In this document: positions 4,363 through 7,475 of the stretch, piece by piece | Layout: each line of letters opens with the position of its first letter | Numbering within the stretch: position 1 is the first letter of the stretch | IMG/VR virus record: IMGVR_UViG_2574180220_000003 | Reading direction: 5' to 3' (one strand) | DNA: 14,420 bases | Source: a virus | Taxonomy: Duplodnaviria > Heunggongvirae > Uroviricota > Caudoviricetes | Program-made: the position numbers and the translations under genes | Notes under the pieces: model-generated | What the model was told of the DNA's origin: nothing | The model's database searches: none | Seen by the model: only the letters and a program-made list of their open reading frames with translations

Positions 4363-4718
4363 TATCGCGTCCTCAACAATGAATTTTGTGATGCGGTGCC
4401 TGGTGCCTCCAGGTGACGTTAACCAGTTAACAATTAACGCCGGATACAGAGAATCCACCCATAACACTGTTTTTGGTTTTAACTGTTCCGCGTGCGCTCA
4501 GCCGCATTCACCACATCACAAAATTCACTTTAAAAAGGGCGGCAGAGCAGTCACGGAGTAAAACTGATACCGCCAAACGTCACCAGAAAATTGATAACAG
4601 AGGGCGTTGCAGCGGGGTTGTCACTTAAGCGTATGGTCAACCTGACAACCCGGTGTCCTCAACGGGGGAAGGAATACCGGAACTCGGTCTGGTTATCGTT
4701 AAGCCAGGCCGTGAATCA

Positions 4719-5702: not shown

Positions 5703-6083
5703 ATGACTGAACGCATAGAATTTGTTTTGCCTTACCCGCCAACGGTGAACACTTACTGGCGACGCCGTGGCAGCACATATTTTATCTCGGAGGAGGGAAA
5801 GCGTTATCGCCGGGCTGTGGCGCTTATTGTTCGCCAGCAGCGGCTGAAATTAAGCCTGTCCGGAAGGCTGGCGATAAAGGTGATTGCAGAGCCACCGGAT
5901 AAGCGTCGTCGCGACCTGGACAATATCCTGAAAGCACCGCTGGATGCGCTGACGCATGCGGGAGTGTTAATGGACGATGAGCAGTTTGATGAAATCAATA
6001 TCGTTCGTGGTCAGCCAGTATCTGGTGGACGTATGGGGGTGAAGATTTACCCCATAATGCATGAAGAGCAGGTCAAAAAATGA
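5703..6083 (+). CDS. rusA: RusA-family Holliday junction resolvase (crossover junction endodeoxyribonuclease)
   Basis: 126-aa ORF with LPYPPTVNTYWRRRG ... PDKRRRDLDNILKAPLDALTHAGVLMDDEQ, matching the RusA pattern including the catalytic acidic cluster. Position immediately upstream of Q is as in lambdoid nin regions. Confidence 0.88.
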   Translation: MTERIEFVLPYPPTVNTYWRRRGSTYFISEEGKRYRRAVALIVRQQRLKLSLSGRLAIKVIAEPPDKRRRDLDNILKAPLDALTHAGVLMDDEQFDEINIVRGQPVSGGRMGVKIYPIMHEEQVKK

Positions 6084-6901
6084 AACTGGAAGATTTACCG
6101 AAATACTACTCCCCAAAATCCCCCGGCCTGACTGATGCATCGGCCTCAACGTCGAAAGATGCGCTGAGTATCACTGATGTGATGGCCGCGCAGGGCATGA
6201 CACAGAATCGGGCTGAGATGGGGTTTTCTGCGTTCCTTGGGAAAATGGGCATTAGTATGAATGACAGAGAGCGGGCAACAGAATTGCTGACAGAATATGC
6301 ACTCAGTCGGTGTGATCGCGTGGCGGCGTTAAGAAAACTCCCGGCAGAAATAAAACCGGTAGTGATGCGCATTATGGCTTCGTACGCTTTTGAGGATTAT
6401 GCCCGCAGCGCAGCGAGTAAAAAGCAGTGCCCTTGTTGCGATGGGGAAAAATTTATTGAAAGCGTAGTTTTTACAAACAAGGTCCAGTATCCGGATGGTA
6501 AGCCACCAGTGTGGGCAAAGTGCACAAAAGGCGTGTATCCGTCTTACTGGGAAGAATGGAAAAAAGTCAGGGAGGTGGTAAAAGTTGCCTGTCCGGAGTG
6601 TGGCGGAAAGGGTGAGGTTTCCACCGCCTGTAAGGATTGCCGTGGGCGTGGTGTCGCCATTCATCGTGAAGAGTCGGTAAAACGTGGTATGCCTGTTATC
6701 AGAGATTGCCAGCGTTGTGGTGGTCGTGGCTGTGAAAGGCTGCCATCAACGGAGGCATTTAATGCCATATGCAAAGTGACGAGTGCTATCACGCTTGATA
6801 CGTGGAAAAAATCAGTGAAACGCTTTTACGATACGTTGGTGGTTCGGTTTGACATTGAAGAGGCATGGGCGGAGCGGCAGTTAAAGAGGGTAACGCGATA
6901 G
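6080..6901 (+). CDS. Q: Late-gene antiterminator, lambda Q family, with extra CxxC zinc-ribbon insertions
   Basis: Start overlaps the rusA stop (ATGA). N-terminal YYSPKSP ... ITDVMAAQGM and C-terminal FYDTLVV ... RVTR resemble lambda Q as recalled from memory. Multiple CxxC pairs (CPCCDG, CPECGG, CKDCRG, CQRCGG). Followed directly by a PR'-like promoter. Confidence 0.82.
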   Translation: MKLEDLPKYYSPKSPGLTDASASTSKDALSITDVMAAQGMTQNRAEMGFSAFLGKMGISMNDRERATELLTEYALSRCDRVAALRKLPAEIKPVVMRIMASYAFEDYARSAASKKQCPCCDGEKFIESVVFTNKVQYPDGKPPVWAKCTKGVYPSYWEEWKKVREVVKVACPECGGKGEVSTACKDCRGRGVAIHREESVKRGMPVIRDCQRCGGRGCERLPSTEAFNAICKVTSAITLDTWKKSVKRFYDTLVVRFDIEEAWAERQLKRVTR

Positions 6902-6906
6902 TGTTG

Positions 6907-6950
6907 TTGATTTTTCCCGAATCTGTGGTAAATTTGCTCTAACGATGGGC
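6907..6950 (+). promoter_or_regulatory. Lambda PR'-like late promoter with probable qut site / sigma70 pause element
   Basis: -35 TTGATT (6907-6912), 16-bp spacer with TGn, -10 TAAATT (6929-6934), followed by ...GCTCTAACGATGGG, which closely resembles lambda PR' GGGTAAATTTGACTCAACGATGGG (from memory), including the AACGAT pause-inducing element. Confidence 0.6.
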
Positions 6951-6982
6951 GTTTTATGCCTGACGTTAGAAGATTTTTTACA

Positions 6983-7007
6983 CCCCGCCGCCTGGCGGGG
7001 TTTTTAT
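6983..7007 (+). terminator. Intrinsic terminator (tR'-like) ending a short late leader transcript
   Basis: 7-bp GC stem ccccgcc/ggcgggg with 4-nt loop, followed by TTTTTAT. Confidence 0.65.
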
Positions 7008-7127
7008 AACTGAAATCGCGTCAGTACAGTAAACGCGCTGGTGGCGGTGAATACCTGTCTTTCAGCTTGCTGGCTTTTTCGACAAGAGTTATTGGTGTGT
7101 CACGTTAACCGGAAAAGGGAAAAAGAC

Positions 7128-7325
7128 ATGCTGAAACAGCAGGATATGACAGAAACCGCCAGAGTGGTGTTTAATGAATTAAGCGTTACCGAACCGGCGA
7201 CAGTCGGGGAGATAGCGCAGAATACTTACCTTTCACGCGAACGCTGCCAGTTAATACTGACCCAGCTGGTTATGGCGGGTCTGGCAGACTATCAGTTCGG
7301 TTGTTACAGACGCCTTCCGCAGTGA
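7128..7325 (+). CDS. Hypothetical small helix-turn-helix-like protein (66 aa)
   Basis: ATG at 7128 with SD AAGGGA about 8 nt upstream. The segment ATVGEIAQNTYLSRERCQLILTQLVMAGL looks like a (winged) HTH. The ORF track's longer 7041 start lacks an RBS. Confidence 0.45.
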   Translation: MLKQQDMTETARVVFNELSVTEPATVGEIAQNTYLSRERCQLILTQLVMAGLADYQFGCYRRLPQ

Positions 7326-7336
7326 AGGCTTTTTTA
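7312..7336 (+). terminator. Possible intrinsic terminator overlapping the stop codon of the small HTH ORF
   Basis: Stem gccttc/gaaggc (6 bp, 6-nt loop) followed by TTTTTTA. Confidence 0.4.
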
Positions 7337-7352
7337 TTTGTGGTAAATGGGC

Positions 7353-7383
7353 GGCTGGTGGGTGTTAGGGGCACCCACCAGCC
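7353..7383. repeat. Perfect 12-bp inverted repeat (ggctggtgggtg / cacccaccagcc) with 7-nt spacer
   Basis: Read directly from the sequence; no T-tract follows. Lies between the small HTH ORF and the methyltransferase gene. Confidence 0.7.
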
Positions 7384-7475
7384 ATCTGCTCATGCGTTGG
7401 GTTCACAAGCAAACCTCAGGCCCACTGCTTTGCGCAAAAGCAGAATGAGCCTATCAGAGACAGGCTTAATGATCC

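Follow-up and report, generated by a model that had tools for sequence, protein, structure and literature searches.

A putative late-gene control cassette of the lambda PR' type next to a long phi80-like Q gene in a lambdoid prophage

Elements downstream of the Q gene

The virus record IMGVR_UViG_2574180220_000003 of IMG/VR (Caudoviricetes) is a DNA stretch of 14,420 nucleotides (nt), hereafter called the window, which carries a gene for an antiterminator protein Q. The stop codon of the gene lies 40 nt upstream of a predicted transcription start. The gap that follows Q, in which nothing is annotated in RefSeq records, is marked by a close array of elements resembling the late promoter PR' of phage lambda, its Q-utilisation site (qut) and its terminator tR'. 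As judged from these elements and from their homologues, positions 6907-7008 very probably constitute the late-gene control cassette (PR', Q-utilisation site, tR') of a lambdoid prophage with an antiterminator of the Q-lambda family. The elements are listed below; lengths of proteins are in amino acids (aa), and positions with a plus or minus sign are counted from the predicted start.

6080-6901, + strand: antiterminator Q gene, 273 aa, long phi80-like form (Pfam PF03589, E value 4.4e-51)
6907-6912, + strand: TTGATT, -35 hexamer of late promoter PR', taken straight from the sequence
6913-6928, + strand: spacer TTTCCCGAATCTGTGG, 16 nt, candidate Q-binding element
6926-6928, + strand: extended -10 motif TGn, here TGG, the last 3 bases of the spacer
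6929-6934, + strand: -10 hexamer TAAATT, the same as the -10 of lambda PR'
6935-6940, + strand: discriminator TGCTCT, 6 nt
6941-6949, + strand: predicted start A6941 and sigma-dependent pause element AACGATGGG, 9 nt identical to lambda +1 to +9
6941-6967, + strand: predicted 5'-terminal stem-loop; AACG (6941-6944) pairs with CGUU (6964-6967), inner stem 6947-6952/6956-6961
6955-6958 (+15 to +18), + strand: TATG, match to the pause-site consensus; predicted RNA 3' end at +17 (T6957)
6982-7005, + strand: intrinsic terminator tR', hairpin 6982-7001, U-tract 7001-7005, predicted RNA 3' end at about 7006-7008

The Q protein belongs to PF03589, which is the Q-lambda family (Yin et al. 2022, PMC9388147), and matches lambda Q of the PDB entry 7UBM in phmmer searches with an E value of 3.7e-39. 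Assignment to a Q of a non-lambda family was ruled out by the PDB match, taken together with what PMC9388147 reports on PF03589. The frame is open over its full length. Residues 1-113 align with residues 1-113 of lambda Q, and residues 182-273 with lambda residues 116-207. The two regions are separated by a 68-residue insert (residues 114-181, window 6419-6622), missing in lambda Q, which features two extra CxxC pairs (CPCCDG ... CPECGGKG) and is located at the site where the zinc-ribbon arm of lambda Q leaves the body of the protein. The same insert is found in gp17 of phi80, and a shorter version in YdfT of E. coli K-12. The insert probably forms a second zinc ribbon; a match to the DnaJ CXXCXGXG domain was also noticed, at a score below the cut-off. 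The N-terminal residues forming the torus do not vary among five aligned Q proteins, nor does the C-terminal VTR, and the zinc ligands are conserved. An earlier note on this DNA, made from the sequence alone, had called the protein lambda-Q-like. This is correct at the level of the family, but the protein is a long, phi80-like Q and not a plain lambda Q.

In the lambda genome (NC_001416, 43800-45300) the late promoter reads TTGACT-17 nt-TAAATT-TGACTC-AACGATGGG, with +1 at 44587. From -14 to +9, 19 of 23 bases are identical in lambda and in the window, all 4 mismatches being confined to the discriminator; identity extends to 5 of the 6 positions of the -35 hexamer. The start is predicted at A6941 because of the 6-nt discriminator and the homology to lambda. 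The window has a single sequence fitting the composite motif TTGAYT-N15-18-TAAATT-N6-AACGAT, and 200 dinucleotide-preserving shuffles have none. The -35 register is filled by TTTACT or TTGCAA in relatives, and by TTGACT in lambda; T-12, A-11 and T-7 of the -10 hexamer are maintained across relatives.

The pause element is made by a -10-like hexamer (AACGAT, +1 to +6) followed by GGG. The second and the sixth residue of the hexamer (A2, T6) are retained even in relatives in which the hexamer varies. The scrunched sigma-dependent pause at lambda PR' has been described by the consensus T-3 N-2 Y-1 G+1 (Pukhrambam et al. 2022, PMC9191641). TATG at 6955-6958 is the sole TNYG found in the first 24 transcribed nt of the window. 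The lambda counterpart, TTCG, spans +14 to +17, and places the RNA end and the pause at +16.

The tR' hairpin (ACCCCGCC-GCCT-GGCGGGGT) is made by 8 pairs, 7 of which are G-C, closed by a 4-nt loop and followed by TTTTT. It spans +42 to +61 relative to A6941, and transcripts released 6-8 nt past the stem would measure 66-68 nt. The entire leader folds at -26.5 kcal/mol (z -3.8), and would be composed of a 5' stem-loop, an A/U-rich single-stranded linker AGAAGAUUUUUUACA, and the GC terminator hairpin with its U-tail. All the elements claimed in the earlier note (-35, TGn, -10, the sequence downstream of it, and a terminator about 45-65 nt past the start) are present where they had been placed, and its comparison to lambda PR' was borne out by alignment, in which promoter, pause element and predicted start match base for base.

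Known systems and relatives

As in the window, a Q gene of the same Pfam family is located directly upstream of PR', qut and tR' in lambda. The two systems have in common the -10 TAAATT, AACGATGGG at +1 to +9, a 6-nt discriminator, a pause TNYG within +14 to +18, and an intrinsic terminator ahead of the late genes. They differ in the spacer, which measures 17 nt in lambda (TATTGAATAAAATTGGG) and 16 nt in the window (TTTCCCGAATCTGTGG), the two sequences being unrelated, in the TGn extension, featured by the window and not by lambda, and in the length of the leader, about 66 nt in the window versus the 194 nt of the lambda 6S RNA.

The phi80 locus (JX871397) has several features in common with the window. 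The gp17 protein is a long Q of about 270 aa, with 40-41% identity to the window Q over the full length. A pR' with its -10 has been annotated, as has a terminator 46-74 nt downstream, which makes a leader of about 80 nt, short like that of the window. The annotated Q site lies just past the -35, at the place equivalent to the window spacer, and reads TCGCGGA, resembling TCCCGAA of the window; a -10-like pause element, AACGCT (AACGAT in the window), is found at the transcript start. In contrast to the window, phi80 has TTGCAT as -35, TAGATT as -10 and a 7-nt discriminator, and the genes directly following are lysis genes rather than a methyltransferase and transfer RNAs (tRNAs).

In P22, the stretch from -10 to +8, with promoter and pause element, is nearly the same as in lambda and in the window. 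A hairpin begins at about +29, and the leader of about 62-66 nt is short, as in the window; gp23, however, is a short Q of 207 aa, and the spacer is of the lambda type. In SfV and in the Qin prophage of K-12 (ydfT, also called quuQ), a Q-lambda-family gene is followed by -35, -10, AACGATGGG, a 5' stem and, about 40 nt on, by a terminator. The predicted Qin leader measures about 69 nt, and no RNA is annotated there. The SfV/Qin Q proteins are 250 aa long and about 40% identical to the window Q. Unlike the window, these loci carry a lambda-like spacer (TTTTTCAAAAAATATGG) devoid of TGn. A terminator homologous to the hairpin of the window is annotated in the records of SfV and Ayreon, and cassette elements identical or near-identical to those of the window are found in the complete phages Evi and Stx2_EH1910. 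Having a Q-lambda-family gene upstream, a pause element, and an intrinsic terminator before the late genes, the cassette is a member of the known Q-lambda-type class, and falls into a phi80-like subclass with a spacer type of its own.

Relatives were surveyed by taking one genome per species. This resulted in 41 loci with Q homologues, 38-97% identical to the window Q, in at least 15 genera of Enterobacteriaceae, among them Escherichia, Klebsiella, Enterobacter, Kluyvera, Silvania, Leclercia, Yokenella, Phytobacter, Mangrovibacter, Kosakonia and Buttiauxella. Elements resembling AACGATGGG (with up to 2 mismatches) were found 40-95 nt past the Q stop codon at 38 of the 41 loci. A canonical terminator hairpin begins between +11 and +51 at 36 of these 38 loci, against 3.9% of background positions, and the predicted leaders measure 57-75 nt. 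Terminators belong to several unrelated sequence types (CCCGCC..GGCGGG, CCTCGC..GCGGGG, AAGCCCTGCGG..CCGTGGGGCTT); their position is kept, but their sequence is not. Similarly, -10, pause element and spacing are kept across genera, but the flanking sequence is not.

Because P22, phi80, SfV, Ayreon, K-12 Qin and most of the surveyed relatives have the short layout, a short leader is the norm in the Q-lambda family, and the 194-nt leader of lambda is the outlier. The leader of the window had been pointed out earlier as much shorter than 6S RNA; it is, but this is no oddity. The resulting rule for the family, a terminator 25-50 nt past the start and a leader of 57-80 nt, corrects a textbook bias.

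A different view of the region holds that the likeness to PR' is coincidental, the hairpin merely ending the Q transcript, or marking a joint at which phage modules recombined. The tR' hairpin (about 6981-6985) is the exact point at which BLAST similarity between phages stops: Q, promoter and hairpin are common to some phages, and others have only the hairpin and the downstream open reading frame (ORF) in common. In phage Ayreon (survey locus L048, 514-557 and 1193-1231) the hairpin is duplicated, with one copy on each side of a lipoprotein-like gene that has been inserted. Recombination that exchanges modules and morons appears to use the terminator as its joint. A mosaic joint is nevertheless compatible with a role as tR', and the absence of the composite motif from shuffled sequences, the conservation of -10, pause element and spacing across genera where flanks diverge, and the sorting of spacer types with Q clades described below leave a chance resemblance scarcely credible; the comparative data have effectively refuted it already.

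According to the identity of their Q proteins, loci were assigned to clade A (Q at least 53% identical to the window Q, window included) or to clade B (the 250-aa SfV/Qin type). Once loci are registered on +1, the clade A consensus reads TTtAcTTTTCCcgAAtCTGTG.TAAtTT. The clade B consensus, TTGCaat.TTCAAAAAaaaTGG.TAggAT, is lambda-like (lambda TTGACTTATTGAATAAAATTGGGTAAATT). The block TTCC[CG][GT]AA is found in the spacer of all 25 clade A loci and in none of the 13 others, 12 of which carry a TTCAAAA block instead. The TGn extension is present at 23 of the 25 clade A loci, and is missing throughout clade B. At 78 loci from viral contigs encoding a Q at least 90% identical to that of the window, -35, spacer and -10 are nearly invariant, and variation affects the discriminator, the linker and the terminator loop. 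The scan of viral contigs that was run with the alignment of five proteins retrieved only such close relatives; the Q proteins of ES18, YeP3 and Edno5 were scanned separately. Because the spacer type switches with the Q clade and is near-invariant within a clade, the sequence between -35 and -10 is a candidate Q-binding element; such a pattern would be expected of an element coevolving with Q. The 68-residue insert may explain why the Q-binding spacer differs. The spacer types thus offer specificity classes in which DNA recognition by long phi80-type Q proteins can be studied.

The course of events at the cassette can be sketched within the framework set for lambda (PMC9388147, PMC9191641), and the known mechanism is left unchanged by the present findings. 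RNA polymerase carrying sigma-70 would initiate at A6941 from TTGATT/16 nt/TGn-TAAATT. Sigma region 2 would then bind again, to AACGAT in the non-template strand (+1 to +6), and hold the enzyme in a scrunched pause with an RNA of 16-17 nt. Without Q, escape would be slow and transcription would terminate at 6982-7005, giving the RNA of about 66 nt. With Q, the protein would bind the -35/-10 spacer (TTTCCCGAATCTGTG) and, before transcription reaches the hairpin sequence, would form a nozzle with NusA at the RNA-exit channel. So modified, the polymerase would then pass tR' and later terminators, and proceed into the 65-aa ORF, the methyltransferase gene, the tRNA genes and beyond.

Several observations weigh against the assignment of 6907-7008 as a Q-dependent late control cassette. 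Although homologous to lambda PR' and kept in relatives, the promoter matches the consensus at 8 of 12 positions, and was not called by a generic sigma-70 scan, in which the threshold was 9; the TGn extension probably compensates for the weak hexamers. In lambda, the repositioned sigma region 4 uses a -35-like TTGACT one base before the pause element; the window counterpart is a degraded TTGCTC, which is not kept in relatives. As the 68-residue insert has no equivalent in lambda Q, DNA recognition is not simply transferable from the lambda structure. No immunity, replication, lysis, terminase or head genes are found in the window, and with such heavy deletion Q may never be made in the host.

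The latter points can be carried further, to the view that the cassette is intact but a fossil: unable to express its own Q, the prophage remnant would make only the terminated by-product, and nothing downstream would depend on Q. Beside the missing modules, the sialate-esterase gene runs straight into tail-fibre genes, and no complete E. coli genome has the window in one piece, the best case consisting of 4 pieces over 28 kilobases (kb). Yet promoter, pause and terminator elements are intact, and identical or nearly so to those of the complete phages Evi and Stx2_EH1910, and the Q frame is open from end to end. Moreover, Q could be provided in trans by another prophage of the same Q type in the host; O157 genomes hold up to 5 copies of the region. 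On balance a fossil cassette is improbable, and a late control cassette of the Q-lambda type is the preferred reading.

The predicted leader RNA

The predicted 5' stem-loop (6941-6967) has a minimum-energy fold of -9.3 kcal/mol (z -2.46). Its outer strand coincides with the pause element: residues +1 to +4 or +5 (AACGA) are complementary to a (U)CGUU located 12-34 nt downstream in almost all relatives. In lambda, +1 to +5 pairs with +19 to +23, and the pairing was also found in P22. Starts diverging from AACG are matched by changes in the partner, as follows.

AATGA start, UCAUU partner: ES18-like clade
AACAG, AACAC or AACAA start, UGUU partner: ES18, Erwinia phage 49 and locus L208 (loci L028 and L030 by inspection)
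AAGGA or AAGAA start, UUCUU partner: Yersinia phages

An exact reverse complement of residues +1 to +4 falls between +12 and +34 in 120 of the 146 different contexts, compared with 13 and 19 of the 146 in two control windows of the same size. Stem cells were paired in 90.6% of cases, versus 29-42% with the partner slid. When AACG or AATG starts were tabulated against CGTT or CATT partners (87 and 3 in the first row, 5 and 20 in the second), a Fisher p of 7e-15 was obtained, uncorrected for phylogeny.

The covariation of the outer AACG/CGUU stem emerged only after more distant lineages had been added. Within the clade of the window itself, recent point variants of the hexamer are uncompensated, which weighs against the stem. 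In the inner hairpin, analyzed in 18 sequences in fixed register, covariation was non-significant relative to shuffles, and changes are mostly one-sided. The 5' stem is predicted to be stable in the window, in lambda, in YeP3 and in the Enterobacter type, and to have no stability in phi80, ES18 and the AATG type. The uneven stability and the result for the inner hairpin also weigh against the stem. A literature search for a 5' stem in lambda 6S RNA found none described, and we know of no description of such a stem. Stabilisation of E. coli messenger RNAs (mRNAs) from the 5' end classically requires a stem that starts at the terminus itself, as Emory, Bouvet and Belasco reportedly described in 1992. 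We tentatively suggest that the leader starts with a covarying 5' stem-loop, which could shield leader and late mRNA from decay dependent on the 5' end, or make the leader a stable regulatory RNA; the odds are against it, but the covarying stem is a small, testable lead on the stability of late mRNA. If true, about one fifth of complete E. coli genomes could encode a stable regulatory RNA of about 66 nt.

A related alternative gives the terminated leader (about 66 nt) a function of its own in lysogens, as a trans-acting small RNA (sRNA), probably binding Hfq, in the manner of StxS. StxS derives from constitutive transcription from PR' ending at tR' in lysogens of Shiga toxin (Stx) phages: a longer precursor is cut by RNase E at +173 to yield an sRNA of 74 nt, and leaders of this kind have been proposed as a general source of sRNAs (PMC7547250). 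In addition to this precedent, the architecture of the leader is typical of an sRNA (5' stem-loop, single-stranded AGAAGAUUUUUUACA, GC hairpin with U-tail), and the region is widespread: of 5426 complete E. coli genomes, at least 1063 contain positions 6700-7480 over at least 80% of their length. Phages encoding StxS have a Q and a promoter of another type than the window, and no sequence relation of StxS to the window leader was found. The single-stranded linker, unlike a seed region, is the least conserved part of the leader, both in close relatives and across genera, and A-rich tracts ahead of terminator hairpins are a common feature of terminators. No Rfam family matches the leader, and HnrS (PMC13502914), a multicopy prophage sRNA of 66 nt reported in 2026, is a different RNA. 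A function in trans is accordingly unlikely, and the leader is better viewed as the product of termination at tR'.

Known RNAs were considered as candidates for the leader. Rfam searches of 6850-7480, with E values up to 10 admitted, gave scores at chance level only, and Esr41, AgvB, AsxR, STnc100 and any other Rfam family were thus discarded for this segment. HnrS is similar in size and location, but the leader contains no complement either of the final 15 nt of mazF or of the ribosome-binding site of hha (both from K-12). Literature searches combining quuQ/ydfT with sRNA, or using the AACGATGGG string, found nothing useful.

Neighbouring genes and state of the prophage

Features identified in the remainder of the window are the following.

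4537-4588, - strand: DicF sRNA (Rfam, 76.7 bits)
7128-7325, + strand: first downstream ORF, 65 aa, weak winged-helix similarity (TrmB, E value 0.0026, below the family cut-off)
7312-7329, + strand: second terminator-like hairpin with T run (within 7128-7335)
7476-8525, + strand: N6/N4 DNA methyltransferase gene (PF01555, E value 6.1e-43)
8575-8650, + strand: tRNA-Met (ARAGORN)
8751-8827, + strand: tRNA-Arg (ARAGORN)
9524-9713, + strand: STnc100-family sRNA, full-length (Rfam, 132 bits), with a strong terminator at 9683-9704
10320-11132, + strand: sialate O-acetylesterase-like gene, overlapping the start of the tail-fibre gene
11021-12502, + strand: tail-fibre gene
12502-13086, + strand: tail-fibre-assembly gene
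13141-13809, opposite orientation: S-adenosylmethionine (SAM)-methyltransferase gene
13866-14135: second tail-fibre-assembly fragment, truncated

Upstream of the cassette the order is int, xis, exonuclease (- strand), DicF, DUF968, RusA and Q. The late or moron unit of this very common prophage type would start at A6941, with the first terminator at 6982-7005. In Stx2_EH1910 the order Q, gap, ORF, methylase, tRNAs is identical, and is followed by stx2AB; relatives such as this one carry stx2 downstream in this transcription unit. Because lysis, terminase and head genes are missing, the late region of the window is viewed as deleted and rearranged. The earlier statement that everything rightward depends on Q is overstated, as the prophage is heavily deleted and more + strand terminators follow tR' (7312-7329, 9127-9145, 9683-9704). 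The STnc100-type sRNA likely has its own promoter, and so perhaps have the tRNAs. Relatives of STnc100 have been found as expressed sRNAs in enteropathogenic E. coli (EPEC); the same 2026 preprint links STnc100 to the EPEC sRNAs PasD1 and PasD2, which are located near PF03589 Q genes (bioRxiv 10.64898/2026.05.13.724894).

Only 64 base pairs (bp) separate DicF from the beginning of the ydfU-like DUF968 gene, which is on the + strand (stretch 4537-4652). In the Qin prophage of K-12, DicF and ydfU are about 5 kb apart, with the dicA/dicC immunity region and relBE/hokD in between. The DicF/DUF968 junction looks like a deletion joint, from which the immunity and replication region has been removed.

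Two further Rfam matches were noticed. P26, a Pseudomonas sRNA family, matches the - strand at 7352-7416 with 24.2 bits (cut-off 36, E value 0.009). This hit, which covers a GC-rich palindrome (GGGCACCCACCAGCC...) past the 65-aa ORF and ahead of the methyltransferase gene, is probably due to chance. IS009 has a full-length match (224 bits) at 12845-13043, wholly inside the tail-fibre-assembly gene, where this RNA family may simply correspond to conserved coding sequence.

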